A stretch of 64,000 nucleotides of DNA from contig CM060732.1 of NCBI GenBank assembly GCA_030704615.1, positions 8,556,001 through 8,620,000 of the forward strand. Reading direction: 5' to 3'. Below, piece by piece: positions 22,771-55,249 of the stretch. Within the stretch, counting starts at the first letter, position 1. Each line of letters begins with the position of its first letter. The notes under the pieces are model-generated. The model saw only the letters and a list, made by a program, of their open reading frames with translations, did not search any database and was not told the DNA's origin. A program made the position numbers and the translations under genes. This DNA is from Takakia lepidozioides. Taxonomy: Eukaryota; Plantae; Bryophyta.

Positions 22771-22772
22771 AG

Positions 22773-24584: not shown

Positions 24585-24719
24585 GCACTTCCGCCCCTAA
24601 TATTTAATAAAAATGGAATATTATTAGGCAGATTTGTTTTTATTATTTAGGCACCTCACCTAGGTAATTTCCAAACATTAGGCATGTATTACAGTCGACC
24701 CTGGATAATAATCAACAAT

Positions 24720-25108: not shown

Positions 25109-25153
<45 letters not shown>

Positions 25154-25330
25154 GGTCTTGAAAATAGATATTACCTCAACAATTGTTTTTGACCTCTCTC
25201 AAAAACTATTGTTGAGGTAATTATCTTTTTTTAAAAACATAATGGTCATGAAAATAGATATTACCGCAATAATCATTTTTTACCTCCCTCAAAAACTATT
25301 GTTGAGGTTATTTTCTTTTTAAAAAACATA
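24720..25330. repeat. Tandem repeat, ~7 copies of an ~88-bp AT-rich unit with internal inverted repeat; (TA)n inserted in one unit
   Basis: Unit ~ tttttgacctccctcaaaaactattgttgaggtaattt..aaaacataatggtcttgaaaatagatattacctcaacaatag. The segments attacctcaacaatagttttt and aaaaactattgttgaggtaat are reverse complements. Confidence 0.9.
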
Positions 25331-29524: not shown

Positions 29525-31025
29525 TTGGTGAACAAACCTTTGATAAGTGGAAGGATAGCAAGGTGGTTAATAATCTTGCACGAGTTTGAGTTCGAGGTTG
29601 TTTACAAGCCTGGTTGTTTGCATCTTGTGGCAGATCACTTGTCACGCCTATCAACAGGAGAGCCAGCCACAGGAGTAGACGACCAATTACCTGATGCGAG
29701 TTTATTTGCAGTGGAGGTGCAGGGAAATGCAGATGACTGGTTAGATTGGCAGTGGCCAATCAGATACTACCTTACTCATGGTCAGTGCCCACCTAGTTAT
29801 GGAAAGGAGCAGAGGAAGAGAATCGCTATCAAGGCTTTACCTTATACTATGGTAGGGGGCAGAATGTATAAGCTAGGACCTGATGGAGTACTTAAACGAT
29901 GCTTGTATCACCATGAAGTAAATAAAGTTTTGGAGGAAGTTCATAAAGGAGTGGCTGGAGGTCATTTTGGAGAAGAGACTACCAGTAGAAAGAACTACTT
30001 GAAAATTACTGGTGGCCTACTTTGTTCAAAGATGTACACAAGTATTGTAAGAATTGTGATGAGTGTCAGAGGCTAGGACCATTGCAGAGATCTGGGAAGA
30101 TGGCTTTGCATCCTACGATGCCTACTGAACAATTTCAGAAATAGGGACTAGACTTTGTTGGACCAATTAACCCACCAGCCAAGAATACACAGAACAAGTA
30201 TATAATCACAGCCACTGATTATACTACAAAGTGGGTGGAAGCTAAAGCTCTGAGGGACAACACAACTAAGTCCACAACAAGGTTCCTGTATGAGAACATA
30301 CTTACACGATTTGGCTGTCCCATAGAATTTATCAGTGACCAAGGAAGTCACTTCATTAATGAGACCATAGAACTATTGACTAAAGAGTTCATGATTGTGC
30401 ATAGAAAGAGTACAACTCACAGGGTAATGGGCAGGCAGAGGCTACCAACAAAATACTATGTACTATCTTGGCTAGGATAGTCTATGCAAACAGAACAGAT
30501 TGGGATACAAAGCTGCTGACAGCTTTGTGGTCATACAGGACTTCATATAAAGTCACCACTAAGTATACACCATTCCAATTAGTTTATGGTATGGAAGCTT
30601 TACTTCCAGTGGAATTCTTGTTACCTACCATGAGATTTGAATGGGGAAGGAGAATGGAATTGGAAGATTCAATTAAGGTCAGGAAACATGAATTATACCA
30701 TGTGGAAGAAGTACGTGCTGATGCAGCTGATAACATGACCAGAATTCAGATGAAGAGGAAGGATCAGTTTGATGAAGGTAAATTAAAGACTTTTAAGATG
30801 GGAGATTTGGTTATGTGGTTGCAAAAGAAGGGGAAGATTAAGGCTTCTAAGCTTAAATCACCATGGAAAGGACCTTATGTCATACAGAAGATGTATGATA
30901 ACAACACCGCCATGTTACAAACCATTAACAAAGAGATATTGGGAAGAGTCAATGCCAATAAGTTGAAGGGATACAGTGGTATCCATGACAAACCATTGCA
31001 GCACGATTTGCATATTGAAACATAG
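29525..31025 (+). pseudogene. Gypsy RNase H C-terminus and integrase (frameshifted)
   Basis: ORFs 29525-30076, 30235-30480 and 30468-31025 carry consecutive integrase motifs, including the GPY/F motif (SPWKGPY). Confidence 0.92.
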
Positions 31026-31124
31026 AAACAGTCACGGGCTGCACCGGTAATACCAACGGAGCATGAAGCACTTGTCGTAAAGCTGAATGTGTATGGCCTG
31101 AGCAGAGAACACGGGTGTTCGCAT

Positions 31125-31330
31125 AGTTATCACAGCCCACCACAGCATCACACAGCTTATCACAGCCCATCACAACATCACACAGCCTATCACAACCCAC
31201 CACAGTGCCACACAGTTTATCACAGCCCATCACAGCATCACACAGCCTATCACAGCCCACCACAGTGCCACACAGTTTATCACAGCCCACCACAGTTTGA
31301 CACAGCCTGCAACAGCCCAACACAGCCCAC
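31125..31330 (+). repeat. 10/30-bp tandem repeat (CACAGnnnnn)n; related array at 36638-36765
   Basis: cacagcccac cacagcatca cacagcttat ... repeated about 20 times in a 10-bp register. Confidence 0.9.
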
Positions 31331-32119
31331 GCGGGTTACACAGTCCATAGGGTCAGTGACAGGTGGACGTGGGTTAACGTTCGAAAAGTGGCCGGCCGGC
31401 AGAAGAAAAGACAGCTTGGAAGTCAAACTCGGAGAATGTGTCACGCGGACAGGGAAAGACGAAGGCAGGTCTAGAAACGAACACGTGGTCGCCAAGGCGA
31501 AGCACACCGCAGTGCATATATTGCAAAAGCGAATGTCATCATGCAAGAAGACAAATTGGGCTATCAAAGTACCTACCCGGTACATCAAACCCAACTATTT
31601 GTGGGCCCATTAATGCATTCAGGGCAAGGGTAACGGAACCCTTTACGAGTACAGAAAAAAAGGATCTTTGCCGCATGTGCTATCCTAGTGGACATTCCAG
31701 GGGGGGAAGTCCACTGAGGGGAGTTAAATTAAGAAGTTACCCAAGGAGGCAACAGCCAATCACGAGCGAGAATTACATGCAGGTGGTTTCCTCCAAAAAA
31801 CAAGAGCAAGAAATTAGCAGGGTTATGAGCGCGAGAGTCGTGGTGGCTCCGAATAACCAGTGTCTCGGCAGGAGAGGCAATCAAAGCTATAGCTTTGTAG
31901 CTATGGCGGATATTACAGATTACACGCTCGTTTTACTTCTCACGCAGTGGCACAAGGACGGACAGGTTGAGAGTACATTCTCTCTCACTCGATACTTGCA
32001 AGCCCCAGAGGCTTACACGCACTTATCCGTTCCATTCTGTGCCAACCATACCTTTATGCTCTATGCCCTGCAAGCTTTTCTTTCAGCTGTTTCAAACAAG
32101 GCCTTTTTGTTTGTGTAGA

Positions 32120-33903
32120 ATGAAGAGAGTGAGGGGAATGGAGGATATCAGGGTGAAGAGCACCACGATACTGCAGAAGCAAACAATTGCTACACCGCAG
32201 GCAGTGCAGCTGCTGAGGGAGTTGCGATTGGAGGGGCTGCTACGCAAGGACTGGTCCTTGCATCATCGGTAGTATATGCTTCAATTTCTTCAGAACTTTG
32301 AGCCTAGGACGGGAGTAACCCAGGTGAGGGGAGTAGATATAGAAATTACTCCCCAGTACCTACAGCAATTGTTCGAATTGCCATCGGGTCATGTGGATGT
32401 GGATGAGCACAGGGCAAGATTGCAGATAGGGAATCCAAGAAGGAAGTTTCTTTAAGACTCAAGGTTACGCTTGCACCAAAGCCGAGTACCCAGGGCTCAG
32501 AGACGTTGGCCAAATACTGAACGTTCTGTTTGCCATGAAACAGAACCAACAGTATTTGAGCAGGTCATTCACAGAGGAGATACTAAAAGCCTTGCGAGGA
32601 GAGGATGTAGCTTGGGCAGAGTTAATGTACAATGGTCTGGTGGAAGAGATGAAGAGGTTACAGGGCACTGCTGCTAAGTCTCCGATCATCGTGTCTGGCC
32701 CAGTCATTGCTCAGATCATTCTTGACTCTTGCATACTTGATGCGCGAGAACGTAATGAGATGGGAGTGTTTGAGGCAGCAACCATTGCAATGGAGGAGCA
32801 GGGTTCTTCACATAGTGAGGGTGGACTGGCAGAGCAACACCAATCTAAGAGACAGAAGAGGGGTATGACTGTAGTGGCGGATCCATTGGCTTCAAGAAAG
32901 CCGCAAGATGATGTTTCCCAAGCTCTTGTGCAGGATGGGGCACAACAACACAGAGGGCTGTTATTACTAAAAGCACGACCTTTGGAGAGGGAAGAAGAAG
33001 TCACTTCGGTACCATAGCCATCACAGCCAGTTGAATCGGTTGTCTCTGAGGTACCTCAGTTAGTACATGCTGTTCCACCAGAGCCTATTGCTCTGGAAAG
33101 AGAAGGGTTGGACATTCCCACTACAGAGCAGGTCGTGGCAGAAATTGAGAAGGGTGACCTTCTCTATGAAAACTCTGGCTTGGTCAGGGAATCAGTGGTA
33201 CCAGAGGTGCAGAGTCTGTCCAGGGAAATCCCTACTGTGCATGTAATACCCACACCTGTGACGGAGGTACCAGGGGCAGAATATAAGGACACTGCAGCAC
33301 CTGTGGAAGATGAGGTGGTTCAGGAAGAGGATCTGGTGGGGCAATGGCCTGAATGGTTGGTGAAACATCACACCGTGGAAGATCAGGGAGAACAGCAGCA
33401 AGTTCACCATGATGACCCCCAGCAGGCCATGCTTATGAGTTCCATAAGGCAGGACACTCAATTTGTTGGGCACTTATATGAAATCAAATGTTCCATCTAC
33501 CCAATTGGCAGCTTTGAGGGAGGAACTCAGGAAAGAGTTTGAGACTCAAATTGTCATTGAGTGTGCTAACAAGGTAGATGAGGAGATCAATCTCAAGTTA
33601 CAGCAAGAGTTGGAGGACACAAAGGCTGCCTTGCAGTTGGTTAAGGGACATTTGATTGAATCACTACAACAGATCGTGGTATTTATGACTGTATATATGA
33701 CTATTCTGCAGTCATAAACGGTACATATGACTTCTATGACTGTAAGTCGTGCAAACCAAGTCAATACAATGAGTACAGGATGGTACGGTCCGTATGACTA
33801 CAATCATATGAACCAAGTGATATCTCTCACTGCAGTCATATATACCATATTGTAGCCGCCGCTGCCGCGCCACGTGGCGAGGCGCATTTGATTTTAAATA
33901 TTT

Positions 33904-33937
<34 letters not shown>

Positions 33938-36526
33938 ATATGTCAAACGCCGCGTCGCACCGCATTGTGCCAGATGGCATAATGCATTTTATAATGATGA
34001 AAAAATCACGTGGCAGTCCATCTAGGGTACCACGTGCTATCCCTAGCTCGCCTACTAACCCTAGGGCTATCTTATCCATTTGATTGTACTTAGAGGAGTT
34101 TGAACCTGCAACCTCTTTACTATAAGAGTTATAGTTCACTACCTGTTAACCAATACACCCATTAGTCATTCATATGATCATATGGTGTTTTAATTGTATT
34201 ATACACACCAAATTATAAAATCCCCATTAATCATCATGACTATATAACCTCATCCATGTACACTGTAGTCATGAAAATGACTATAAATGGTGAGCTAAAT
34301 TTGGTCAATTGTCGTTGACCAGCCTTCCGCCCATTCCGGAGCCATGTAGTCATACAGACGACTATTTAGATAGTCGTTCATATGACTACAGTCATATGAA
34401 CGACTACGGGAGGTCAATTTCATATAAAAACATGGTGCAGTCATGGTCAAAGTCATGAAAACCATGACTACCACGGTTTGGCAGTCATAACTACCGCGAT
34501 CTGTTGTAGTGGAAGTAGGTCTCGAGCAGGACCAGTTGCATGAAGCACATAAGCAACAGTTATAACCATTGCAGGTGAAGCATGAGGGCAAGTTGCAAGA
34601 AGTGAACATACTACATACAGAGTTGGAGGCAGTACATCAAATGATGACCATACAATGTGCTACACTCACAACTGCTCTAGAGCAAACTGCATTAGAAGTT
34701 AACAGACAAGGGGAGAGATGTATGATGGCAGAAGCTGAGATAATAGAGCAAGAGAAACTCATTGTTGATTTGCAGGCTACAATCTGTCGCAATGATAATA
34801 CTTTCCAACAGTACAGACACGTTGAAACTGACCAGGAGAGGTACATCCTGGAGTTGCAACAAACAATCATGGTCAATAGAAATGAACTTTCTAACAAGGC
34901 TTGGAAGGAAGCCAATAATCTGGCTGTTGCCTATGCGAGCATGGTTGAACCTCATGCAAAGCGCATGGAGGCTTTACAGCAGCAGTTAGATGTGTACAGA
35001 CTCACAGAGGAGCAGACTCTCAGGGTGCCACACATGACTTGGTGGATAACCACCTTATGCAGATATGGTTAGCACAAGGGCCGGTAGAAGGCAAAGCACC
35101 AAGGAAGCTTACCTAGGGCGAGATGAATGAGCTCAGATTGCAGGTGCAGAACATTGCCACAATTACTATAGACAATGTCTATAGTAGGATAGCAGAGCTA
35201 CAGGAGGATGTGGAAGGCCTGCAGACTCAAGTGAATGACCTGAGTTCAAATATTGACAAGAGAGTCTTTGTTCCTGAAGAGCAGCTGATGGCTACTTATT
35301 TACATGCCAGAACTCTAATTTTTCAGTCTTCTTCGCAGGGGGTGCAAAAGATGCCAGTGGTAGAAGGGCCAGTGGTACTAATACCACAGCAGGTGCCTGT
35401 GCAGGTAGCTGACCCTGTTGCTACTACAGCCAAACCACAGCCTGAGGTATGGGGGGATGCTGCTTTTAACCCACCTAGGACTCATGTTGCACGGGAGTAC
35501 AGTCGGGCTATGATTATGCCCTTCAACCAAATTCCCATTGTGCTGGATTTGGCTTAGAATGAATTTAGTCCTCCGCAATCGTTGGTACATTACTACCAGA
35601 TCATACGCATTTGGTTGCCAGTGGCAACTCGGATTAAGGTTCTTCCGAACAATCGACCCATTGAGGATCATCACTTTGCAAGGTACTGGTCTGAGGCAGG
35701 TACCATGCTGAAGGAATTAATTGCTTTCCAGGTTGTACATGGGTACATCTATACCAAGACCAAGGAGGTATCTAGTATTGTCATGGGCTGTGGATTATAC
35801 TATGCTGTTTGTTTTATGGCACATTATCACATTGAGCAGCAGAAGATGCAATCACGATTTCTGAGTTATTCCAGTGGGGATCATTGGGTCTTACCTTCAG
35901 TGCCACCTCATATGTACCTATATGATGCAAAAGTTATGATGCAGAAGGATTCCCAACTTCGTTCATGGTTTAATTCGGCTTGGAATAATTTGGCAACAGA
36001 GAAATTCGTCCCTGCGGATATTTTCTTTAAGGGACATGAAGCCTGGAAATATTTACACTGTTCCAAATTCATTGGCACGCCTCTCACCTATACGGCTAAG
36101 GAGTTCAGGGCGTTCACTAATTTTGCTTGCAAACGCTTACAGCAAGTCGTACAGTTTAAACTTCCAGACATGGTGGGCCCACATTGTATGCCACGCAGGA
36201 TTCCCGAGAAGCCACTTAAAGTTCGGCCATTAAAACACCTAAGGGGGGACGAGGATTATGATACTACTGTTTCTTCAGAGGACTCTTTTGACTTGGCAGA
36301 GGACTATGCACTTCAGATGGCAGAGAAGAAACGACGGGGATCTCCTATGCCTGAGGGTTACCTTGTTATCAGCCAAAGGAGGGTCAGACATTTCCAGGTA
36401 GTGCTCAATCGTCTCCATCAGCCAGTGACAGGACTCGGGCTCGCACACGGAGTCCTTCACGAGACTCTCACCGACAGAAGGGTGCTCGCTCACAAAGGTT
36501 TGCTGATCCCAAATAGTAAACCGTGA
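32120..36526 (+). pseudogene. Extra 3' ORF of the Gypsy element (env-like/accessory, with coiled-coil stretch), broken by stops and a CACTA insertion
   Basis: Same-strand chain of ORFs at 31967, 32535, 33108, 33463, 34569, 35123 and 35582. The reading frame resumes across the CACTA MITE (KGHLIE | EVGLEQDQLHE). A heptad-rich segment lies at 33.5-35.3 kb. Confidence 0.6.
33662..34511. mobile_element. Non-autonomous CACTA element (~850 bp)
   Basis: TIRs CACTACAACAGATCGTGGTATTTATGACTG / CAGTCATAACTACCGCGATCTGTTGTAGTG. The flanks gaa(t)| and |gaa fit a 3-bp TSD. It has ATGACT/AGTCAT subterminal repeats and an internal A-run. Confidence 0.9.
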
Positions 36527-37409
36527 GGACACGGCTTTTTGAGAGGGAGAGGGGGTACCCTTAATTTTTGCGCAGACTGAGACCAACAGGAGCCTTAGGG
36601 GTGGCAGGCGCAGGCTTTAGGGGGGGTAGACAGCTCGTCACAGTCTATCACAGCCAGACACAGCTTTACACAGCCCGACACAGCTTCGCACAGCCAGTCA
36701 CAGCCCGACACAGCTTTACACAGCCAGTCACAGCTCGGCACAGCTTGACACATCCTGTCACAGTACATGGGGAACAGTTATCATTGACAGGTAACGACTG
36801 TGTGGGAACGACATCTGCAGAGGGAACGTGTTACTTCAGGGGTGACGGTTAGTTAGTTAGGTGGTTAGAACAGCTTGCGGGTAGATTAGGCAAGGCGGCA
36901 ACAGGAAAGGGATCACTTCTTGAGGAGGCGACTTGTTCAGGGGAGGAGGAGACGTAACGGAGAGCGGAAACAATAAAGAGGAGATGATGACTTGATTGAG
37001 GCTTAATTCATGCAAGCTGTAAAATTATACAATAGGATAGATTAGGGACACCATGGCATAAGCATGATACATGATTAATCTTAATCCAATACTGAATCGA
37101 TACAAACATACTGTGTAGAGAGACACAAGAGAAGCTGTGGAATGAATGCATGATTAATTGGAACTTAGTAGATACTGAAGCAATCTGATGCTTCAGTATA
37201 CACGGTAAGGTAAATTGATAACATGAAGACAAGAAGGAATACAAATAGGAAGCACAACCATGATTCACTAGCTGTAGGTCATGACTGATTGTTCTGAGTG
37301 GGCTGAGTGCTTAGAGATATCCAACTATTCTATCTTGGAGTTTCCACCTCGGATAGCAAAGGGATGGGTGAGTTAAAGCCGATCGACAATCCCGACCGGA
37401 TTGGGTGCC

Positions 37410-38099: not shown

Positions 38100-39160
38100 A
38101 ACTTACGTAATGACGTTTATTTTGGCGTCGGCATCGTCCACAATGAAGGCATTGGGTCGCATTGCGAGGAGAGAGTCCCGCAAGGCTGCCATCAACGGCA
38201 CCAGGTCTGTTGTCTGCTCACGCGCGCATATGATGTACGCAACTGGTATACCGTTAAGCCATTCGTCGAAGACCATCAACGTGTACAATGGGAACTGTTC
38301 AAATGCAAAATGTTAGATGCTGCCAGTGTGCGTACATCCACTACTTCTGCAAGTGGATAAATTGTGAAATGGATGAAGAGTACCTTGTGGTGATTTGTCC
38401 CGAAGGTTGCATCGCATGCAACGATACGGGCATGGCCTAATTGAAGCATTCGCTTCTTCTGCCACTCAGTCTGTATGCCAATTGTGAATGTTAAGTCGCC
38501 ATCGTAGTGCTTGAATGTTGGTGCCAATTTTTCCTCTTGATAGAAGAAGACCGATTTCGGGTTCTGGTCTTTCCACATGCGGACACTCTCCGCATCGTTG
38601 GCATGTTTTTTGAGCGTTTGCCACGCCCGTTTCTCGGCCAGGTTGCGCACATCCTGCTCTAGCAAAAAACCGTCCCGTGTCCATGCATCCCCCAACCCGG
38701 TGTTGTTCATGACGTGCTCTTTATGTTCCATCATGATTTGGGCGACTGACAGGCCTCGGCACAGACACTCCATGATCCATGCTTTCAATTCCTTGCTAAT
38801 GTGTGGTGCGTAGGCGTGGCGAGTGTTCCAAAACTCAACGGACTTCCCATGACAGGGGTTCCATTTCGCGTCTGTATGCTCCATATTGTTGTAGTACGTT
38901 AGGACACAAATGTCGGGGGGAGATGGGGAGCATGAGATAGCATTGCTGGACCTTGAAACAACACTGGCAACCACGCTTGTAAGACTCTCCATATTCCAAC
39001 TTCTTTCTCCTTGGGCCTTTATGAGGGTGAGATGTTCCAGCACCCAGAAGAGGTCCTCCACGTTTCAGTTTCGGATCCTCCACTATCGCATTGTTGGTGC
39101 GCTTGTCATCAGGACCATAGCAGCATTGATACCTGGACATAAAAATCACAATGGATATCC
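38100..39160 (-). mobile_element. Second Mutator-like (MULE) transposase, 5' part
   Basis: N-terminal YQCCYGP..KRGCQCCF..H zinc-binding region, IGIQTEWQ..VACDATFGTNHHK, then after an intron PLYTLMVFDEWLNGIPVAYII..FIVDDAD (MULE domain). Confidence 0.82.
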
Positions 39161-41201
39161 ATCGACTTCTGGAAGCATGAAATCACAGAACGTGGGTACG
39201 AAAAAGGGCAACAGACATGCAATCAGACTACAAAAAGACGATGAGGATGGAGCACACATGATACTGTTCAGAGAACTGCTGGCTCTTGACTCTTTTAGCA
39301 TGCCGGGTTGCACTTTAGTATGGACATTCACCCAAACTGAGTGGGGTAGTCCACCAAACTCTCCTCTCCAAGAAGAAAGTCATCAACTCTATCCCACGGT
39401 ATGCAGGCCTTCAGAACATTCTGTCTGACACACAGTAAGTCCATCTGTGTGCTTGGGGTCCCATGCCAATCATTTTGCTGATTCATGCACTTTCAATAGA
39501 CTCAAATAATAATACTTCCATTCTTTGTGCAGGACTGATTATTCTATTGAGCGGGAACCCCCTTCCCTTTGTCTCAGGGGTGTCATGAAGCCGTTCTATG
39601 CTCAGCCGGATTTCTTCCCTAGCCCAGTAAAGAATTATGAGTTGCCATCCTACGCCGACAAGCTTGCAAGGACCTCTATCAGACGACACCCTAAGCCTAG
39701 TAAAGTGCAGCGTGTTTTGGCTGCATATAAGGATAGAAAAAAGAGGAAAAGATGTCTAGAAGGGCCAGAAGGCTTAGACCTTATGTGTTAGAATCAGCAT
39801 CGGAGAGTGATGGTGAGGATGATTCATCAGAGGTCCAGTGGAGGGTTCCTGATGGAGAGGACGGACATTTTGAACATAGCTCTGGCAGTGCTGGTGGTGA
39901 GCATGATGCAAATGCCACTAGCGATGTAGATTCTCCTATTGGGTCTTCACCCTCATCTTCAGGCAGTGCAGGTGCTGGTTCACACTACACGGCGGGTGTG
40001 GGTGCCGCAGAGTCTAGCATTCACGGTCTGCCTAGCAATTGTTGGGACTTGGAGTTTTCAATTGCAATTTCAATTTGATTGTGTTATGGAAATATGCTTC
40101 ACCTTCTTCCAGTTTAGGTTTTTCATCACGGACTCTGTATGCAGGCGCACTGCTCATAAGTTATAGGGGTTTGGAAGGTTAAAGGTTTGGAAGGTTTTTT
40201 GACATGTCACAACACAACCCCCATTTGCATTTCTGAATTGCTTGTACTATCAACAATACACCAAGATTTTCCTTAAAATAGCCACACCAACTTAATACCT
40301 CTGTCAATTCAACAATTCATCAGTCAATTCATCATCAATTCAACAGTCATGAAAGTGGAGAGCTAAGGTACAAAAACATTACAACTTAGGTGTATTTATC
40401 TACCCTAATTCCGTGGAAAGGACACCCTATTTCCGCGAATAAAGCTAAGTGTGTTACACTGTGAGCATGACGCTCATGCTCATGAAATAGCAACCCCCAG
40501 GGCCTCTCGCGTGTCATACTTGTTTGAAGCATGATGTATTTGCTGCAGATCATTTTGTTTGTCGGTAACAAGGACAAGCAGGCCTAGACCTGATGGACAG
40601 CTGGTGAAGCTCCATCGATTGGAGTGGATGTCTACAGATGATGGGAAGTAAATAATCCCTTCTCCCAAGTACCATTGAACTCATGTGGCTTGGGATTCTC
40701 ATGGATCAGCACTGCTTGAAAAAATTGAGACTTTGAACGTTTGTAATCCATATATCCTAGCACTTGGAATGAAAGTGACCTAGGCTGGATATGTTAGTTG
40801 AGTTCCTCAGTATGCCAAACTTTTTTCAGAGTATGAATGTTTTGAGTGGCCTTTTTCCTATAAATCAAAACAAGGATGCAGAGTCAGCCTTTTGATATTC
40901 AAGAAGCATGATACTTGAGCACTCCTACCTGGCTTAGACATGGAAATACAAGGCATTTCTCACTAAATTTATGTGAGAACAAGTCTGGTGGAGTACCTGG
41001 TCTGTTTTTTTAAGCTAAGCTATGACTTGACCTTTTTGGTAGTTGTATATACCCCCGACATGATCTGGTCACTACACTTTATCCATTTGTGGCTATATTG
41101 TATAACTGGTGTCTAAATCTTTAGGAGTCATGTGGTTGAACAAGCTGAACCACTGGCTACCTTGACTGGCACTGTGTAATCTTGGTGGTTTTGACAGCAT
41201 G

Positions 41202-41342
41202 TGTCGTGCGCATACATATCGCTACACAACTACATCGTTGTCCAAAACCACACAACATATGTGCACACCAAACACTAGTCTATCACTAGTCCACCACTAG
41301 TGCACCACTAGGCTGCCACTAGACAACCACTAGTCCATCACA
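41202..41342 (-). repeat. LTR copy (shorter) of the DNMT-bearing Gypsy family
   Basis: TGTCGTGCGCATACATATCGC...CTAGTCCATCACA, near-identical to 41663-41857 apart from fewer internal CCACTAG repeats; TG..CA termini. Confidence 0.85.
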
Positions 41343-41662
41343 ATGATAAGGAAATGAAATATACAAGCACACAAGCTCTCTCAAACTCACACACTTGCAA
41401 ATGAAAACATCACTCGTATATTAAGTCGAGCCAAGTGCACCCCACGACATGGGGAATCCACACTACGGCGCCATAGCTAGACGCGATGAGGCTCAACTCA
41501 AGAAAGATGAGCCCACCGCGATCTGCCGTGAAGATAACAACGCCAGGTGCCCAAACATGTATTGGTCCCTGGATTGACACTTGGGTCAATCCCAAATGTC
41601 AATATATAAAAGCTAGCTATTTCCTAGCTAACTTCACACTAGTGATAAAATAACTTGACAGC

Positions 41663-41857
41663 TGTCGTGCGCATACATATCGCTACACAACTACATCGCT
41701 GTCCAAAACCAACAAATATGTGCACACCAAACACTAGTCTATTACTAGTCCACCACTAGTGCACCACTAGGCTGCCACTAGCCACCACTAGTGCAGCCAC
41801 TAGTCCAACCACTAGGCTGCCACTAGCCACCACTAGTGTAGCCACTAGTCCATCACA
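41663..41857 (-). repeat. 3' LTR (~195 bp) of the DNMT-bearing Gypsy element; polypurine tract at 41858-41872
   Basis: On the minus strand AACTAGGGGGGCGAT (PPT) is immediately followed by TGTGATGGACTAG...CGCACGACA. Confidence 0.85.
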
Positions 41858-42117
41858 ATCGCCCCCCTAGTTGGCGCTTAGGTCCCTCTAAGTCCAGGTA
41901 GCCACAAGATGTGATAGTGGCCATAGCCTCACCAAGTCCTCCACCACTGTCCCTACTACACTCAAACTCAATAGATCAAGAGGCCGGGTACAAGAGTTGC
42001 CCCATCGTTAGTCGCCGTCTTGCAACCTGTGAACTTGAGCCTGAGATCTTGGGTATTGACTCCTATGAGCTTGGTCTCCCATGTCTTGTGAGCTGCCACT
42101 AGTCATATCCACTGCCA

Positions 42118-42300
42118 CTATCCCAAGCAGTGTGGACATAACCAATCTCCATCAGGAACCCTTTCAAGAGGTGGTGTCAAGCATCACATGTGCCAACCTC
42201 TTGAGCATCAATCACACACCAGCATAGTGGCAGCACCACGAGCATGCCCACATAGCATGCAACGCAATCCTGCAGGTACCACTGCAAGGTTGGGATCTAT
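42118..42300 (-). pseudogene. PHD finger at the integrase C-terminus
   Basis: Manual translation: IDPNLAVVPAGLRCMLCGHARGAATMLVCD*CSRGWHM*CLTPPLERVPDGDWLCPHCLG*. This is a C4-H-C3 PHD pattern with two internal TGA stops and a frameshift from the integrase ORF. Confidence 0.9.
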
Positions 42301-43450
42301 CCTCCATCCACATGTGGAAGGTGACATGACGCACAATTACGCACATGGTCCTTCCATACCATGCCATCTCGACCCTCCAGAATCAACATTCCTGAAGGCA
42401 ACACCTCCCTGACCCTTAAAATCACACGTCCTGCTGTGACATCTAAGGTCGTAGGCGCTGTCTGCTGCAAATACACATAGTCCCCAGGGTAGAAACGCCG
42501 AACACCTGGCCAATATCCCCCTCCACGTATAGTGGCATACCTCAATGTGTCTCGGTATTGGGCAATAGAAAGATTCTCAAAAGCCATAGGCATGACTCTC
42601 TTGAACAACTTTGCCCGCTGGGCACATGTTTGTGTCCACACATCCGGATCATCAAGGTTGAGGACAACTGCAGCCTCCCTGCGAATAGATGCAGACAAAT
42701 CCGGCTCTCGGCCAAAGAGAAGGAAATATGGTGAGAAGGAGGCAAGTGATGCTTGCTTGCTGAACCTGTAGCCCATGGCTAACCAAGGTACCTGAAGATC
42801 CCAATCTCCTAGGTGTCCCTTTTGCAAGCCATACTTGCGCAAACCCCTCTTCACTGTCTAAACAACTCTCTCTGCCAAGCCATCGGCCTCAGGATGATCC
42901 CGAGAAGTGGTACGGTGGTCTATCAAGGCTTTATCACACAAAGCCTGAAACTCCCCCAAGAACTCTCTACCTTGGTCTATGAGTACCTCAGCTAGAGCAC
43001 CGAATCGGCTAAGCACACGATCCAGGAATGCATACGCAACCCCCTCACTAGCCTTGTCAGGCAATGGAACCAACTCAATCCATTTGGAGAAGTGCTCCAC
43101 CATCACTAACACGTATCTGTGGTGACGCATCGTCAGTGGCAAAGGCTCTGCGAAGTCAAGACTCCACCTGTAGCCCAATCCCATGATTGGTAAAGGATGC
43201 AACTGTGGTGTAAGGGCGTTGAATGAAGCACGCACCCTGTCACACACCATGCACCTAGCCACGAACTGTTGCACCTCTGTGTGCATACCGCGCCACCAAT
43301 ACTGCCCCTGCAGTAAACTATGAGTGTGTCGCACTCCAAAATGCCCCAACTCCTCATGGGCATGCCGCACTAACCGTGCACGCTGTGTTGGGTGAGGCAC
43401 AATCCTCACCCGACCATCCTCCCACACTCGAAGCAGGTGTATCCCCTCCT
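42297..43450 (-). pseudogene. Gypsy integrase
   Basis: AHEELGHFG..YWWRGM..CMVC (HHCC zinc finger), WSLDF, VEHFSKWIE, IDQGREF, HPEADGLAER and SPYFLLFGR. Confidence 0.93.
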
Positions 43451-45130
43451 ACTTGAACCTCTTGGCTCGTTGTAGGATCCGATCCCTCTCCTTGGCAGTC
43501 ACACTAGCTGCCGTGTCTCTAGTGCGGAGGTAGTCAAACACAACCAAATCCTCATGTATATCTCTGGCACCACCTGACTCATCACTAGCCTCAGGGTCCT
43601 TAGACACTCTGTCTACAGTCATCCCTGTTGTAGGTCCAACATGACCTCTCGATGCCAAGATACACAAAAATGCAGATGCATGCCATCCTGGCACCATCTC
43701 CTCGTCCGTCTCACCATGCCACCGAGCTCCAGTGTCATCCTGCTGGCTTGTGCATGGATTGCGACTCAATCCATCCGCATCCCTATTGACCAAAACCGGT
43801 CGATGCACAACCTGAAAGTCATACTCCTTGAGTATAAGTGCCCACCATGCAAGCTTCCCCGTAAGCTTGTCTGACTCCATCAACCACTTGAGTGGCTGGT
43901 GATTCGTGACAAGGGTGAAGAGATTGCCGTATAGATAGCACCTGAAGTGTGCCACGGCCCACACTGCAGCTAAGCACTCCCCCTCATATGAGCTATACTT
44001 AGACTCTGCAGCGTTGTTCAAGCGGCTAGCATAAGCCACTACGAACTCTCTTCCCTCATCATCCACATGTGTGAGCACCGCTCCAAGCCCCAGCATGCTC
44101 CAATCTGTATGCACCTGAAAGGGACGCCCCTTGATAGGTCGTCTCAAGATCGGCGCCGAGGTCAACCTCGCCTTGAGCTCCTGAAAAGCTTGCTCTTGCT
44201 TATCTTCCCACTGCCACTCCTGGTCTACCTTGGTTAGCTTGGTTAGAGCCTTTGCAATAGCACTAAATCCCTTGACAAACCGTCTATAGTAGTTTGCCAA
44301 CCCCATGAAAGCTCGAACTCGGCTCACATCCGTGGGACGTGGAATCTGTGCGATGGCCTCTACCTTAGTCTGCTGCACCCCTAATCCTCCAGGATATATC
44401 ATGTGGCCCAGATACTCAATCTGGTTGTGGAAGAACTTGCACTTCCCCGGATGTAATTTCAATCCATGCGCTCTCAAGCGCTCAAACACCACCTGAAGGT
44501 GTCTCTCATGCTCCTCCACGGTAGCACTAAAGATGATGATGTCATCTATGTAGCAACGAGCAAAGTCCACCCCTGCTAGAATCCTGTCCATGACTCTCTG
44601 GAATTCTGCAGGAGCGTTCTTAAGCCCGAATGGTAAGAATCACCACTGATATAGGCAATCCTTCTCGTGCTCATTGATCCCCCAGAATGCCGTCTTCTGC
44701 TTGTCCGCCTCCTTGATCGGCAACTGATGATATCCGGACCGCAAGTCCAAAGTGCTAAAGACCTTGGCATGCCCAATGGCATCAAAGATCTCCTCCGGTG
44801 TGGGCATGGCATACTTATCGGACTTGGTCTGACGATTTACAGACCGGTAATCGTCTCTCCGTCCAATTGCCATAGACATCCTTCTTGACTGGCATCACCG
44901 TGGCTGAAGCATACTCTCCACCAGAGAGCTCCACCAAACCAGCCTCCCAGAGATCTTGAAATCTCATCTGAATCAAAGACCTCCCCATGTCATTGTATCT
45001 ATAGGGTCTCCGAAAGATTGGCGTGTCCGTGGCCAACTCAATACGAATCTCCTGACCCTTCAGTGCTCCCAAATCCTTCAAACTGAAGGCAAAGCAATTC
45101 CTGTAAGTCCTCAGGAACCGCCGTATACGT
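43449..45130 (-). pseudogene. Gypsy reverse transcriptase and RNase H
   Basis: PIFRRPYR, DYRSVN..DKYAMP, FSTLDLRSGYHQL, KTAFW, PFGLKNAPAEFQ, YIDDII, LHPGKC, FMGLANYYRRFV, VHTDWSMLGLGAVL, YEGECLA and NRDADGLSR. Confidence 0.95.
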
Positions 45131-45544
45131 CGTCTCTCTCCTCCAGGACAATGGGTCCAATGTCAGGCTCCCAATTGTCCTCCATAACTGCAACCTTACG
45201 TCCAGCAGACTTAGAGGTAGGAGACGCGTCCCGTGGTTGCTATGCCGCAACCTCATGAGCAGTATTCCCTGCCTGCTCAGTCAATGACAAAGCCTCATCC
45301 TGCCCCATCATCTCATCCTTGAGGACCTCCTCAACCCGAGAAGAATCCCCAACCTCATCCATTACAGCCGCCTTGGCTGCCAACTCCCTCTGAACCTCGA
45401 GCACCTCACACGTGTGCCATGGATGTCTACACCCCGTGGTCCTCACCGGCTCGCCCCCACTCACTGCCTGTACCATCTCGGTAGGCAGAGAGACCGTGAA
45501 GGGAAGTGCACTCCGCACTCTACGTTGCTCAGCCATAGCCAAGC

Positions 45545-46500
45545 TGATAATCCAGGTCAAGCAATTTAGATCCATTGCTTGCCCCAAACACTGACGACGT
45601 GATGTGCCTCAGAAAGAGAAGGCACCGCCGTGGTCCCGGTGGAAAAACCCATAACCCGCTCTCGCTCGTTGGCATTAGGCTCCACTAACTGCTGCAACTG
45701 AGCATCCCACAGGAGGCCAGGTCCACTATCCGGGAAAGCATGCGATCCTGGGAAGCTGAGCAGTGTAGGTAGTGCTGCTCGTGGTTGATCCACCTTGTTG
45801 ACCACTGCCAAAGGCGAACGGTCATCGTGTCTCACACGCTGAGACTGCCTCCCTATGTCTAAAATGCTATCCACTATGAGGTGTGCTAGCCGCTGCACCC
45901 CATCAAATGCATGCTTGAGCAGTGCGGGTGGCATTAAGTTAGTCCACCATAACCGTGGACGATGAGCCCGTGACCCCACTGCAGCTGCATCCAGCAACAC
46001 TGCTGACCCAAGCCATGACCGGACTTGATGCACACTGGCCATCACCCTGGCCCAAGAATCGCCCATCAGTGGCACAATTCTCCAAGATGTATGTTGGAGA
46101 TACAGCCTGATGAAGCTGTAAGTGGCGCAAAACCCGCACCATCTCTCAAAACAGACCCGACCTTGAGTCTCGCAATCCATTGCCAGTCCGGCGGATGAAC
46201 GCCCTTGGCAGGGCCAACCTGCCACTACCAAATCAATGAAGCCAACCCGCTCCAAATCCTGCGCCCCCAGCAAAGAGATGTCTGCTGGCAAGGCCTGCTC
46301 ATATCCACAAACTGCAGACACCGGCACAACTCAGGGTAATGCTGCACCAACTGAGCAACATGACGGAGTGAGACGCGTCGTGCGGTCTCATCCCTCTCCA
46401 CATACAAGTAACGCCGTACTCATACACCTGCCTGTAGAACAGCAGCCAACCCGGTGTTGATCCCGCCAAACAAGTCCAGAAGGCAAATGCCTTCATCCGG
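45545..46500 (-). pseudogene. DNMT3-like DNA (cytosine-5) methyltransferase domain within pol
   Basis: Motif I LLDLFGGINTG (~46451-46482), II YVERD (~46390-46405), IV DLVVAGWPCQG (~46202-46235), VI YILEN(V) (~46075-46091, 1-nt insertion), VIII DAAAVGSRAHRPRLWWTNL (~45937-45993), IX ERERVMGF (~45645-45668) and X LGQAMDL (~45565-45590). Confidence 0.9.
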
Positions 46501-46859
46501 ACACTGCCACACGATCGATATGGTGTCCAATGGTGACAACTGAGGTGGTCCTGGTGCAATCCCTGCATTGTCCTCCTCTCCTGGCGGTACAAAAGCCTCT
46601 ACCCAGGCTTGTTGCACACGACAATCAGCAACCCACTGCAAATCCTTGCTCGAAACCCACAATGGAGTGTGAGCAACCATGGCAGGCAACTCCGCCATAC
46701 CATACATATCATCTTGCTCTCCCGGAGTTGACACATCCTCTGAATGAGTATTGCCATCCAACAACTCTCCAGGCCAAGTCACTGCAGCTGTGAATGTTGC
46801 CAGTGTTGGCATCTTGCCTCGCTGGGCAACCGCAACTCCTCCTATGAACGTCACAGGGA

Positions 46860-47273
46860 GCTGCACACGCGGGCCCTCCCCTGACTGCCATTCAGGCCTA
46901 TAGGAAGCTGACTCCTCCCAAATCGTGAAAATGCGTATCTTACATGACTCTTAACCAGAGCCATAACACACAGCCTCTGATGTGAGGTGTGGCCTTTGGT
47001 ACGAAGTGATTGTTGAAGCCTTCAAGTAAAGCTGGAATGGAGAACCAGGGTGAAGCCCATGGGGTACAACACTGCCACACCAACAAGGACATCGTACGAG
47101 ACTGCGTCTGACACAATGGCCTTGGCTCTCATCACTGAGCCATCTATAGGATGATCCGGCTGTAGTCGGATAGCCAACTCACACCGGGTCATGCCCCGAG
47201 CCTGCTCTGATCCTCCCAGAGATGTCTGTATCTGGAAAGGGCACGGCTCCATATCCACCTCCGTGAGGCCCAA
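46860..47273 (-). pseudogene. C-terminal half of a retropepsin-type aspartic protease, with a ~120-bp insertion (~46922-47044)
   Basis: ..IQTSLGG...AIVSDAVSYDVLVGVAVLYPMGFTL, resuming ..WEESASYRPEWQ. The YDVLVG segment corresponds to the retropepsin D/ILG flap-closing motif; the catalytic DTG would fall in the gap. Confidence 0.6.
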
Positions 47274-47773
47274 NNNNNNNNNNNNNNNNNNNNNNNNNNN
47301 NNNNNNNNNNNNNNNNNNNNNNNNNNNNNNNNNNNNNNNNNNNNNNNNNNNNNNNNNNNNNNNNNNNNNNNNNNNNNNNNNNNNNNNNNNNNNNNNNNNN
47401 NNNNNNNNNNNNNNNNNNNNNNNNNNNNNNNNNNNNNNNNNNNNNNNNNNNNNNNNNNNNNNNNNNNNNNNNNNNNNNNNNNNNNNNNNNNNNNNNNNNN
47501 NNNNNNNNNNNNNNNNNNNNNNNNNNNNNNNNNNNNNNNNNNNNNNNNNNNNNNNNNNNNNNNNNNNNNNNNNNNNNNNNNNNNNNNNNNNNNNNNNNNN
47601 NNNNNNNNNNNNNNNNNNNNNNNNNNNNNNNNNNNNNNNNNNNNNNNNNNNNNNNNNNNNNNNNNNNNNNNNNNNNNNNNNNNNNNNNNNNNNNNNNNNN
47701 NNNNNNNNNNNNNNNNNNNNNNNNNNNNNNNNNNNNNNNNNNNNNNNNNNNNNNNNNNNNNNNNNNNNNNNNN
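47274..47773. other. Assembly gap (500 N)
   Basis: Run of N. Confidence 1.
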
Positions 47774-50700
47774 ACCTTCCGTTCTAGCTCTCTAAGGCTT
47801 GAAAACAAGAGCCTCAATGGGCTGAAGGCATGCTCCACACATGCCCCACTCTCACCATAAGAGAATCAGCTCCTTTGCTTCATTTCTTGCACCCACAAAC
47901 CTGATAATACAAGCTTCAGCAGGCTGAAAGCATGCTCTACATGCCCTACAGGGAAACCAGCCCCTTCCTTCCTTTCTTGCACTCTCACACCTAAAAGTGC
48001 AAGCCTTCACCAGGCTGATAGCATGCTCCACACATACATTGCCCTCACATAAGGGAAGTCAGCCCTTCCCTCTTCCTTGCTTGCCCTCCAAGCTTGAAGA
48101 TGGAAGCTTCAATGAGCTGAATACATGCTCCACACATGCAACCTCTTCACACAAGAGATATCAGCCCCCTATCTTGGCTCCTTGGCTCCTTGATGCTCTC
48201 TAAGACAAGACTAAGCACTCCACAGCCCTTGCCAAGCTCTTGAAACCCTAAGGCTTACATTTCCAGCCACAAGACACTTCTCTTGTGGTGCAAGAGCTCT
48301 TCTTCCAAGCTCTGAAACCCTAGGTGCACATTCCATGGCCTTGCCGCACCTCTTAGCTCCTGTTCCAGCCCTGCTCTTGCCATGACAAGAGCCCTCTCAA
48401 TGCTGAAGCTCGAGATTGAAACCCAATCTCACCATACTCCACAAAGTGCACTGATTTGCCCCAAGCCAAATCAGCCCTTTCGCTTGGTCTTGCAATCCTT
48501 CACACAATGACAGCTCGCATTCCCAAGTCCAGTTCTCAGCTTTGCCACCAAAGCCACTATAACCTGCTCTTGACTGGTCCTCTTCCCAATCGTGCTTGCT
48601 CATGCATGTACACAATCTGAAACCATCAAGGTGCTCTGGAATTACCTACAGTATGGTGCTTTCATCTCTGAAGCTGAAGATCGAATGCCAAGGTTTACCA
48701 CCTCGTAACCCACATCGCCTCCGCTTCTAACAACCAAGAGCTCCACGGTGCTCCTTGCATAACAACTTGGTTTCTCTCATTCTCAAGCAAAAACCACAAG
48801 TGCTACAACTAACTCGTATCTAGCACTCATAGATACGAGCTCATCTTTCTCGAGTGATAAAGAAGAAGAATACAAGCACAAGCTCATGCGAGCTCACAAA
48901 GCTGAAGCATAAACTCATGCATATATAACCTCATCACTCAAACAGAAGTCAAGCCAAGTGCACCCCACGCCATGGGGAATCCACACTACGGCGCCATAGC
49001 TAGGCGCGGTGAGGCTCAACTCGAGAAAGATGAGCCTCCCGCGCTTGCCGTGAAGATAACCACTCCAGGGCCTAAATCTGCCTTGACCCCTGGATTGACA
49101 CTTGGGCCAATCCCAAATGTCAATATGTAAAAGCTAGCTATTTCCTAGCTAGTTTCACACTAGTGGTAAAATAACTTGACAGCCTCTTCCCAAGGCAGCT
49201 CAATCTCACCTTTGATGCTGGACTCAAAAATCTTACGAGCCTCACCTTTCAGGCACACCCGGAAAGTCTTAACAACAAAACGAGATGGAATGGAATTGAT
49301 CTCCCTACTGATATCAAAGAATTCAAAAAACGATTCAAAATCATCCCCTAAGTTAAAATCAGGGTATGGTTGTTTGTGCATTTTCTCTGTATGGTCAGGG
49401 GGTTTATCAGCAGTAGACACGGGTGTTTTGCTGAATCAACATTTTCATTAAAGGAGGACAGTTGGACACTACACCCATGGCCTCACAAAGCTCCTCCACA
49501 TCAAGAGCTGGCTCCTGAGTGACCTTATCCTTTGCTACCCCTCCCTGATAAATAGATTCTTTAGCTTGAGAGATCTCATTCTTGTCACTAGCTAACTCTC
49601 TCTCTCTTCTAGCTTCAAGTTCACTTAAACCTACCATCTCTTCTGCTTCTTTTTCCAGCATGGCCCTAGTGTAGACAGGCATGGGCAGGACCAATACAGC
49701 TTATCTCCGACCTGCTGGAGCTTGAAGGAACTCCTCCCAGTTCGCCACACAGTGGCAACTGATGTACTTGTGTTTGGGCAAAAGGTAGATCGCCTCACCC
49801 AACTGATCCTAGACTTCCCGGTCTGATTTGAGCCAAAATGAGACTTTGGCAATGGAGCGGATGATACAATCAGGGTATGTGGAGGGTATTCCGCGGCTTC
49901 CGCCACCTGACTGAGCCCCACGCGTTCGTATTTGTAGCTTTTGCCAGGGAAGATCACGACGTTCGTGGCACAATGAGAGAAGCGTTGCTCAAGCACCCTA
50001 GTGACTACCTCTTCCCAGATCGGATCAGCAGCAGCCTTAGTAACCTTGGCCTCACGAAGATTGGCAAACACAATAGCCGTGCCACCCTTGACAAATTCCC
50101 AAAGCCGCAAAGGACTGGGCCTGTTGGAATGCGAGAAGCTCTCCAAATCACGGCCAAGCTCACGAGAGACTGTAAACTTAGGAACACCCACTTCCACCCA
50201 GCTGAATTGTTCACCAGCACTCATACGTTGTTTGAACACTGAAAATGGGATTCTCTGAGCAATCTCCTCCGCGTGCAGTTCCTGCAACAATTTCCCAGCC
50301 CAACCCCCTATAGTGCCTCGTCCACTTTGCGCTTTTGTTCACGTTTTTGAGCGGCAATGGTTGCAATTTTTGCAACTTCCTCAGCAGCCTCTTCTTCGAA
50401 CTTGGCAATCCAGTAATCAAAGGGAGTATCCAGCACGATTTCTTCACGCGTCCATGCTTCCCTGTTATCAACAGGAGCGTATTTGCAGATATCTTCACTC
50501 AGACGGACTCGTAATTCATGTAAAAAGGTAAGCTCAAAGTTGAGCTCAGGAGTAATCTCAGGAAGCAGCGACTCAGAGTGGGAAGGAGACGCCATCGCGT
50601 ACAGCAGACAGAATCAACACAAGTTTGCACAAACCAAAAACAAAAACAACGAAGCAAGGAGTATAAGCCGCCGCCATCGTGCTTGATAACGGCTGTACCT

Positions 50701-53757: not shown

Positions 53758-54537
53758 TCATTTTGTCATCACTCCAAACCTTGCCATCCGAGCCTTCTTC
53801 TTCGCTTCATCGTCAGCAGACAGCTGTAATTTACCGCCACTCTCTGTAGAAACTCTGAATCTCTCCGCCCGAGCTTTCCTTTTCACTGTCTCCGCCTCAT
53901 TGCTAGTAGGACTCTTCTTGCTAGCTTTGTCTGCTGAAGGAGGAGGAGTCACTGCTCCCTTCTCATTTCCATTGGGACTTCCCCCATTAAACCTGACACC
54001 CCGCATGCGGCGCTTTTCGACTTCAGAGACAAAAAATTCAGTTCCAAACCGTTCCGCGCGTTTCTGTTTCTTCTCAAGATCTGAGAGGGGAGTGGTTGCT
54101 CCTGCTCCGTTGGTTTCTTGAGGTTTTACGTGCTCTGCTGGGGCGCTGTCACCCTCTTTCTTACCCTCTTCAGTGCTCTCAGTAGCCAGTGGCTGAGATT
54201 CCACGGAAGTTCCACTAGTGCCCGTAACAGTCACAGCCGCTTCGACCTCGATTGTAACTTCCGACGTCTTAGCACTCTCACCGTCTTCCAGCCCATCACC
54301 TTCGTTCTCATCAACTTCGTTCTCAATTCTTTCACCATCTTTTTCAATCCCGTCACTTTCAATCTTTTCTCCATCTTCTTTAGCGACATCGGCAGTGTCA
54401 CTGCCATCAGCCAGCTTAGAAGAATATTTCTCCAGACGCTCAACCAATGTCGCCTTCAGGCCCACAGTGTCCAACCCTCTGTTTGCCAGCTCCTCCCGCA
54501 GAGCTTGCACCTTCATCTTCTTCCACTCAGCCGCCAT
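53758..54537 (-). CDS. MOS11: SAP-domain ribonucleoprotein, THO1/SARNP(CIP29)/MOS11-like mRNA export factor
   Basis: MAAEWKKMKVQALREELANRGLDTVGLKATLVERL (SAP domain), an acidic linker, and repeated KK.KRAERFG / KRKARAERF / KKKARMARFG motifs typical of the Tho1/MOS11 C-terminus. The CDS is intact and uninterrupted, with a likely 5'UTR intron acceptor near 54572. Confidence 0.85.
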   Translation of the reverse strand: MAAEWKKMKVQALREELANRGLDTVGLKATLVERLEKYSSKLADGSDTADVAKEDGEKIESDGIEKDGERIENEVDENEGDGLEDGESAKTSEVTIEVEAAVTVTGTSGTSVESQPLATESTEEGKKEGDSAPAEHVKPQETNGAGATTPLSDLEKKQKRAERFGTEFFVSEVEKRRMRGVRFNGGSPNGNEKGAVTPPPSADKASKKSPTSNEAETVKRKARAERFRVSTESGGKLQLSADDEAKKKARMARFGVMTK

Positions 54538-55249
54538 TCCGATGCAGTAAGCAGACTTGTGGGGTGAGACTCCTACAAAAAAATTCTCACTCACAGGAAC
54601 GAGGTTTTCAAAGAAACCCCTTGCAAATTTGCACGATGTTTCTACTATGACGTGCAAATGTGAGGAATGCAGCAATGACAAGAGACCTTCCTTGCCAGTT
54701 AACAGCCCAGGAACAAATGCAAACCTTTAAATGCAAGGCAGAACTTTTCGGAAAACCAGCGTTTGGTAAGACAGACAATTCAATTCAGACAATAAGGGGA
54801 TGGCAGACCCTACAGTTGAACAGCTGTCACTAGAAAGAGTAGGTGATGACCTAAACCAGCCCCGTCTACACAGAAGAAACCCTAACCTCAATCTCTCAGA
54901 AATTCGTTCAAGGAACTCTTGACCTGACAATCTACACTCGGCAAAAGGAAACAGTCAGCCGTGATAAAAGGGTAACGAAGGTCCGGTAAAACTGGGGTAG
55001 AAGAACGAAGCCAAAGAGCAAGAAAGACACACCAAAAAAAAATTGCAGTAACAGAGCGGGGGGAAAGAGGGGCTCAACACAACGAAGACAACGGTTCCAG
55101 AAGCAAGGGATGCTTAGTGGAAGAGTCAGACTACAGTAACAAGAAACGGTCAGACTAAGGTTGAAACAAGAAACAAGAGGCCGGACTGCAGAAACCTCAA
55201 CCTTCTAATAACATCCTCCGAAAGAAGTTGAATGGAAAGGTATAGGCAA

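Follow-up and report, generated by a model that had tools for sequence, protein, structure and literature searches.

The window analysed here is a 64,000-nucleotide stretch of contig CM060732.1. It contains a Ty3/Gypsy retrotransposon copy on the minus strand (47273-42121), in which the C-terminal part of a protease (PR), a C5-methyltransferase, reverse transcriptase (RT), RNase H (RH), integrase (IN) and a PHD finger follow one another. On balance this is probably a dead copy of a high-copy Ty3/Gypsy family in which a DNMT3-like enzyme ends the Gag-protease protein and the terminal repeats are split into an A-coding-B-A-B arrangement, likely generated when integrase cuts an internal palindrome of end-joined cDNA. 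The coding part of the copy, and the gap that precedes it, contain the following features.

47274..47773, no strand: assembly gap (500 N), the site expected for gag, the zinc knuckle and the protease active site, which take up ~2 kb in relatives
47046..47273, minus: aspartic protease, C-terminal part, 54% to residues 654-730 of Marchantia protein P0006
46921..47045, no strand: ~125-bp insertion, private to this copy and skipped by contigs
45528..46515, minus: C5 cytosine methyltransferase domain resembling DNMT3, with unpermuted motifs I-X; the catalytic Cys, Glu and RxR are retained
46476-46450, minus: motif I, DLFGGINTG
46404-46390, minus: motif II, YVERD
46219-46202, minus: motif IV, GWPCQG
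46088-46077, minus: motif VI, ILEN, the frame being lost immediately afterwards
45967-45935, minus: motif VIII, AHRPRLWWTNL
45667-45644, minus: motif IX, ERERVMGF
45587-45567, minus: motif X, LGQAMDL
45240..45242, minus: in-frame stop between DNMT and RT, context GCA-TAG-CAA-CCA, fitting the UAG-CAR-YYA readthrough signal
44364..45099, minus: RT (Pfam RVT_1), broken, with YIDD at 44552-44541
43800..44204, minus: RNase H (Pfam RT_RNaseH, E 4.5e-32)
42306..43445, minus: DDE integrase with H2C2 zinc finger (Pfam Integrase_H2C2, rve), broken by stops
42121..42276, minus: PHD finger at the integrase C-terminus, two stops inside, 59% to residues 969-1029 of protein P0116

RT, RNase H and integrase pass the Pfam cut-offs in a scan of the window, and the protease of relatives matches Pfam Asp_protease_2. 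The domain order PR-RT-RH-IN with a DDE integrase is that of Ty3/Gypsy elements, as are the polypurine tract before the 3' repeat and the primer-binding site, of self-primer type, after the 5' repeat. DIRS and Ngaro elements are defined by a tyrosine recombinase and the lack of target duplication; here there is an rve integrase, with 4-bp duplications. The PHD finger (42276-42121) was missed by the initial annotation of this DNA. Residues 969-1029 of P0116 match Pfam PHD at E 2e-9, and the broken piece in the window does so at E 0.0011. The copy had been described as dead, and it is: there are stops at 46422, 44642, 43451, 42860, 42210 and 42186, several frameshifts, and the private insertion, for which no match was found elsewhere in the window or among the related loci. 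An Rfam scan of 40-51 kb of the window gave no match.

All of the methyltransferase motifs that the initial annotation placed between the protease and the RT are present on the minus strand in that wording and order. For motif VI, ILEN is intact, whereas the 'ENV' given there runs across a frameshift. The domain is interrupted by the stop at 46422 and by frameshifts near 46330, 46185, 46076 and 45603. Of the Pfam models proposed for checking it, RVT_1 and rve pass, but DNA_methylase matches the largest methyltransferase piece only weakly (E 0.052, under the cut-off). A profile built on natural relatives matches this piece at E 1e-67 and four adjacent pieces with E-values between 9e-7 and 4e-3; the reversed window, used as a control, gives E 2.8 at best. 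An ESM Atlas look-up returned only DNA_methylase clusters. The top solved structure for P0002, an unbroken relative that is ~60% identical, is DNMT3A (E 3.6e-11), with DRM2 at 0.004 and HhaI also well behind. An AlphaFold model, of low confidence (pLDDT 51) and a consistency check only, likewise has DNMT3A as its first structural match. The domain is therefore DNMT3-like and not DRM-like, as had been proposed, having its best match in the DNMT3 catalytic domain and its motifs I to X in order rather than circularly permuted as in plant DRM.

The ends of the element were compared with those of related loci (numbered L001 onward) from a metagenome scan. The window contains one right end, and beyond the assembly gap one left end.

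48855..49181, minus: repeat A1, 327 bp, TG...CA, left end of an element of the same family, probably a different insertion
49020..49035, minus: site in A1 complementary to the primer-binding site (16-nt complement), likely transcript 5' end and self-primer
48839..48854, minus: primer-binding site directly after A1; in relatives the site differs and A is changed to match
47774..48838, minus: likely 5' untranslated leader with ~102-bp tandem units, its length fitting the A1-to-gag distance of 1,172-1,188 bp in 5 relatives
41858..41869, minus: polypurine tract TAGGGGGGCG plus 2 nt ahead of B1, common to relatives
41663..41857, minus: repeat B1, 195 bp, TG...CA
41657..41666, no strand: palindrome GACA-GC-TGTC at the B-A joint, putative integrase attachment site
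41344..41660, minus: repeat A2, 317 bp, TG...CA
41343..41343, minus: A2-B2 joint, a single T that differs among copies, candidate end-joining scar
41202..41342, minus: repeat B2, 141 bp, with which the element ends on the right, identical to B1 at 137/139 aligned bases

The 195-bp repeat that had been taken for the long terminal repeat (LTR) makes up just one part, repeat B, of an A-coding-B-A-B layout. From the polypurine tract the right end reads B1 (41857-41663), GC, A2 (41660-41344), T, B2 (41342-41202), and the layout recurs in L012, L029, L045 and L047. The coding region is not flanked by the two complete identical LTRs of a standard Ty3/Gypsy element. Among 10 distinct 3' ends, four have the complete B-A-B, one is cut by its contig inside A, one is disrupted and ends A-B, and one is uninformative. 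B lies upstream of A in none of 13 5' ends. All three distinct relatives with both ends have 4-bp target duplications (AAGG in L045, TCTC in L029, CACA in L032); therefore the TGTC of A and the GACA of B are the integrated ends. The 10-bp palindrome at the B-A joint is found in the window and in 5/5 relatives, always with a 2-nt centre, which changes between GC and AT with the palindrome intact. The A-B joint is variable: it is GT, AT and AT in three cases, a 17-nt stretch that opens with primer-site sequence in another, and ~21 nt that close with the polypurine-like CGAGT in a fifth. It keeps remnants of the primer site or polypurine tract.

The host's own sequencing runs contain 20 contigs that exit B at GACA into unrelated flanks (agreement 0.4), and A begins at 41660 (TGTC) beside unrelated flanks. 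Depth is steady across the B-A joint and ~30-fold lower at the A-B joint; near 41200 contig depth falls to the level of the flank and loose contig ends begin. The suggestion that A is the LTR of a separate element nested beside the 195-bp LTR is ruled out by the layout of the relatives. A 55-bp repeat at the end of L066 and a tandem in L065 and L058 were not counted; these resemble assembly overlap.

A1 and A2 are only 89% identical over aligned bases (275/309), compared with 137/139 for B1 and B2, and the flanks of the two ends are AGGC and CATG, with no shared target duplication. A1 is therefore probably part of another copy, and its reading as the 5' end of the window copy is not supported. 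Gag and the 5' LTR had been thought lost in the gap. This is expected for gag, but a 5' end of the family lies beyond the gap, likely that of another copy. No gag similarity was detected in the leader at 47774..48838. A degenerate gag-like frame at 49182-50400 (minus) runs into A1, and this same-family 5' end seems to be inserted in another element. The first letters of the primer-binding site are not TGG, and it is therefore not tRNA-like. Its 16-nt complement in A1 compares with at most 9 nt for control 25-mers, and L038 and L045 have another 16-nt complementary pair that differs in sequence yet is matched. A self-complementary primer site would fit self-priming of the Tf1 type.

The methyltransferase had been placed inside a continuous pol frame. 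It is instead the C-terminus of a Gag-PR-DNMT protein that ends at a conserved stop. This stop is in frame with both DNMT and RT in 31/31 anchored rows (30 of 57 loci and the window), being TAG in 23 and TAA in 8, with CAA next in 29. The named ORF1 (first open reading frame) proteins of Marchantia and Calypogeia end 98-100 residues past motif X, matching the position of the stop. A single open frame is found instead in Closterium P0160 and in the unnamed proteins P0156 and P0346. UAG-CAR-YYA is the tobamovirus readthrough consensus (PMC3159437). The reading frames show an ORF1 for Gag, zinc knuckle, protease and DNMT, a conserved stop, and an ORF2 for RT-RH-IN-PHD. Because the stop divides the two, the DNMT is likely to be made at the level of Gag. 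Gag-PR-DNMT would be the major product, with readthrough yielding the replication enzymes; DNMT domains per particle would therefore approach the number of capsid subunits. The literature searched, of which coverage was incomplete, contains no report of this readthrough in such elements.

The metagenome scan gave 78 loci. Those of L001-L057 with several domains have them in the order gag-zinc knuckle-protease-DNMT-RT-RH-IN-PHD, with an additional upstream integrase in L038; the six of these loci compared that bear ends are 79-86% identical to the Sphagnum protein. Sixteen loci on viral contigs have only distant DNMT matches and no retroelement domains. A search with the DNMT domain returned 33 homologues, of which 14 are named proteins from bryophytes: 11 from Marchantia, 2 from Calypogeia and 1 from Sphagnum. 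One public run containing the host DNA has 61,663 element contigs. Their summed depth is 0.25-1.3 million throughout the DNMT, RT and integrase regions, while that of the flank is 68; summed depth measures family abundance, not copy number. The family is very abundant in this host. Between the window and seven loci, the proportion of nonsynonymous differences (pN) is 0.19-0.39 for DNMT, with the synonymous proportion saturated at 0.73-0.79, and pN for RT-RH is 0.13-0.18. The dN/dS comparison across copies that had been suggested gives 0.23-0.62 for DNMT and 0.33-0.50 for RT-RH in the Sphagnum-like family. By these comparisons the DNMT is family-wide and under purifying selection.

RT relatives include those of Calypogeia, Marchantia, Coleochaete, Closterium and Klebsormidium. 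Members of the lineage include the Coleochaete scutata protein P0117 (RT-RH-IN-PHD, from a transcriptome), Closterium P0160, and the protease-DNMT protein P0437 of Mesostigma viride. In a tree of 125 RT rows, from which rows with an RT-RH span outside 150-520 aa were left out (including four arachnid proteins and one from Closterium), every DNMT- or PHD-bearing RT falls on one side of a branch with support 1.0. In a tree of 41 chosen rows, rooted at the midpoint and built without named REXdb references, 28 DNMT/PHD rows are split from 13 others at 100/99; neither tree has a named Tcn1 sequence. RT branching is broadly in line with the hosts; the exception is Coleochaete, which is closer to the bryophytes than Closterium is. 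The proposed link to Klebsormidium elements is borne out by this grouping, into which the DNMT and RT gene models of K. nitens fall. Two of these, KFL_013780020 (zinc knuckle-protease-DNMT) and KFL_013780010 (RT-RH-IN), are consecutive on a single 7,497-bp contig and presumably represent KnitGypsy-Dnmt3 of de Mendoza et al. 2018 (PMC5890265), the available text of which gives no locus identifiers.

Since the RTs tested form one group, the element very likely belongs to the KnitGypsy-Dnmt3 lineage. Like KnitGypsy-Dnmt3 as described in the available text of that paper, it has an intronless, unpermuted Dnmt3-like domain with the key residues, under purifying selection, within a Gypsy element. The legends of its Fig. 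4c and 1e also give a DIRS-like A-coding-B-A-B structure, for which that text offers no mechanism. The differences are that the present family is in a land plant at very high copy number, and that it has a stop between DNMT and RT where PMC5890265 places the DNMT in the Pol ORF. The PHD finger, target duplications, palindrome, self-priming and integration route receive no mention in that text. The initial annotation had proposed a DNMT-carrying Gypsy lineage in embryophytes. Such elements do occur in bryophytes, but as judged from the sequences they are very likely an extension of a known streptophyte lineage rather than a new capture. In the literature searched, again with incomplete coverage, DNMT3-carrying Gypsy elements are described only from algae, with no land-plant report. 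The end structure, readthrough stop and self-priming are new here, while Dnmt3 capture by Gypsy is already known from Klebsormidium and the cargo is a range extension.

A second layout, RT-RH-DNMT-IN-PHD, is present within the group in 11 of L058-L069, and in full order in 30/150 representatives. This large sister group (L058-L069; P0023-P0033) often has a single long open frame. A guess based on composition makes green algae its probable hosts. The same GACAGCTGTC palindrome occurs in L061, ~60 nt past a polypurine tract, and L059 has the same CGCACGACA end. Within Marchantia, 4/15 listed members of the ORF1 cluster (P0329, P0330, P0331 and P0334) are on the V sex chromosome and are annotated as hypothetical genes. 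The family member P0289, deposited as 'uncultured Synechococcales cyanobacterium', is likely to reflect bin contamination.

These features suggest the following replication and integration route. The RNA would start inside A and be self-primed at the site after A1. The integrated form could still give a full R-U5-internal-U3-R transcript, A1 providing the start and B1-A2 the 3' end. Leaky readthrough would yield the long protein, with the DNMT packaged at Gag level and freed by the protease. Reverse transcription would produce an ordinary linear cDNA with an LTR of B-GC-A at each end, and imprecise joining of these ends, as in a 2-LTR circle, would leave the A-B scar. Integrase would then cut the B-A palindrome of the 5' LTR, drop the 2-nt centre and insert A-coding-B-A-B with a target duplication, as the ends and the 4-bp duplications suggest. 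An internal attachment site with an end-joined intermediate is quite probable. The weakest step is the last, in which new cDNA would be methylated de novo by the DNMT, and the PHD finger, a type of domain that reads histone H3 tails, would recognise H3 at the target.

A precedent is foamy virus, in which processed ends are produced by integrase cleavage at the palindromic LTR-LTR junction of a circle (Delelis et al. 2005, PMC1180852). There, according to the available text, the cut is at the end-to-end junction and the provirus is normal, whereas here it would be inside the LTR and the provirus permuted. DIRS-type elements with split direct repeats, including SymbioDIRS-Dnmt3, share the A-coding-B-A-B layout and the Dnmt3 cargo (PMC5890265, as far as its text goes), but use a tyrosine recombinase where the present family has a DDE integrase, a Gypsy RT and 4-bp duplications. 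Tf1/Sushi and plant Tcn1 elements likewise have a primer site complementary to their own LTR rather than to a tRNA (Neumann et al. 2019, PMC6317226), but are chromoviruses with normal LTRs, whereas this group has a PHD finger; the words 'PHD', 'methyltransferase' and 'Marchantia' are absent from the available text of that survey. EpiLTR and DAM-LTR elements (bioRxiv 10.64898/2026.05.21.726589) similarly join a DNA methyltransferase and a chromatin reader in Gypsy, yet are algal and have a DNMT4-related DNMT, an adenine methylase and a chromodomain. That preprint cites the streptophyte Gypsy-DNMT3 elements as distinct and, in its available text, does not mention Marchantia, bryophytes or land plants. 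No mechanism for a split-LTR Gypsy was found in the literature searched, which was incompletely covered.

Several observations weigh against the proposed route. Three of the 10 distinct 3' ends stop at B1. Variable tandem units in B, together with two subtypes of A, confound the dip in depth at the A-B joint, and many metagenome loci are one insertion sequenced twice. The self-priming complement is 9 nt or less in 10/13 relatives, which are decayed copies. The exact UAG-CAR-YYA context is present in only 4/31 rows, the Sphagnum-like family having CAA-CCC and 8 rows TAA, and 27/57 loci without the anchor motif are outside the stop count. A symmetric circle has two palindromes, but the mirror product A-B-A-coding-B is seen in 0/13 5' ends, for which the circle model has no explanation. 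Its absence favours some asymmetry.

The function of the DNMT is the step most open to an alternative. Methylation of new cDNA would be its most likely role, but the CpG observed/expected ratio of the element (0.52) is close to that of the window (0.50) and above those of the neighbouring Gypsy (0.24) and LINE (0.34); this absence of extra CpG loss gives cDNA methylation no support. The 23 best-supported transitions, among 764 differences, are 5 CG, 4 CHG and 14 CHH, against 364, 518 and 1834 sites, a distribution that is uninformative. The Klebsormidium DNMT showed no methylation in yeast, a result called inconclusive in the available text of PMC5890265. An appreciable though lesser possibility is that the DNMT is kept for another role, such as DNA or RNA binding in the particle, non-CG or target-site methylation, or marking of the attachment palindrome. 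Among the rows of the DNMT tree, which holds element-borne domains only, motif IV is frequently GWEC (56 rows, against 40 with GWPC), and the position of the DNMT between RNase H and integrase in the sister group indicates that its placement is flexible. The catalytic Cys, Glu and RxR are nevertheless retained in the bryophyte, Closterium and Klebsormidium relatives, and the related SymbioDIRS-Dnmt3 enzymes methylate CG (PMC5890265, available text). Another role would alter only the cDNA-methylation step and is compatible with the rest of the route.

The A-B joint may, less plausibly, be made by the reverse transcriptase itself. In this case the plus strand, on reaching the right end of the minus strand, would switch to its left end and copy B a second time. 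No circle would be required, as integrase would cut a linear molecule at the outermost palindrome on either side. This would account for the sparing of the middle palindrome and for the missing mirror product, and primer-site and polypurine remnants are kept in the joints. The ~21-nt filler of L029 and the deletions near the joint also fit end-joining repair, and do not separate the two routes. Returning to the end-joined intermediate, an improbable extension is a streptophyte-wide, and probably wider green-algal, Gypsy lineage with its attachment site shifted into the LTR and hence dependent on end-joined cDNA for integration, in which the Gag-level DNMT3 of the particle would methylate the cDNA and shield one palindrome in a manner like restriction-modification, leaving just the productive palindrome to be cut.

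It is very improbable that the B-A-B end arose by chance around a normal element with a 195-bp LTR, through nested or tandem insertions or through assembly. The two ends in the window have no common target duplication and a gap between them, but the layout, palindrome and 4-bp duplications recur in independent relatives, L045, L029 and L032 contradict it, and the Klebsormidium layout is stated likewise in the available text of PMC5890265. A single insertion of a host DNMT3 fragment into an ordinary Gypsy copy, which has in its favour only the poor Pfam match of the broken piece in the window, can be virtually discounted: the domain is part of the element as initially proposed, being intronless and in frame with the protease in relatives of six genera, at RT-like depth in host contigs, and under purifying selection.

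The range of Dnmt3-carrying Gypsy elements, previously one alga, is thereby widened to mosses and liverworts. Among the latter is the model Marchantia, in which intact natural ORF1 proteins (for example Mp4g09160) are annotated as hypothetical genes, so that the role of a transposon methyltransferase can be tested directly. Bryophyte DNMT3 counts may be inflated by such elements. The end structure suggests that this LTR retrotransposon makes routine use, for integration, of an end-joined intermediate, a form usually regarded as a dead end; with the readthrough and self-priming, it points to a testable and unusual life cycle in a model plant. Programs that find LTR pairs are likely to miss or truncate these elements, because they need two matching flanking repeats.

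The land-plant host proposed initially is supported. An intronless SAP/Tho1-MOS11 gene at 53758-54726 (minus) first matches Sphagnum, Calypogeia and Marchantia; in a tree it joins Sphagnum and unnamed rows with support of 97/95 and is their earliest branch. The host is likely to be a moss, the placement by one gene counting against a firmer assignment. Fragments of a plant PPR gene, duplicated and broken, are at 15700-19900 (minus), and a degenerate LINE (RVT_1, zf-RVT) is at 57376-60689 (minus). A second degenerate Gypsy-like element occupies 27100-37100 (plus), with integrase remnants at 29417-31025, additional ORFs, tandem arrays of 10 bp at both 31.1 and 36.6 kb, and 99-bp units at 37.4 kb. 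At 21597-22896 and 38276-39182 (minus), two related sets of degenerate ORFs without a Pfam match resemble DNA-transposase remnants. At 7769-8916 and 24679-25333 there are a ~1.15-kb element with 203-nt inverted arms of 94% identity, resembling a miniature inverted-repeat transposable element or foldback element, and an array of 89-bp internally palindromic units.

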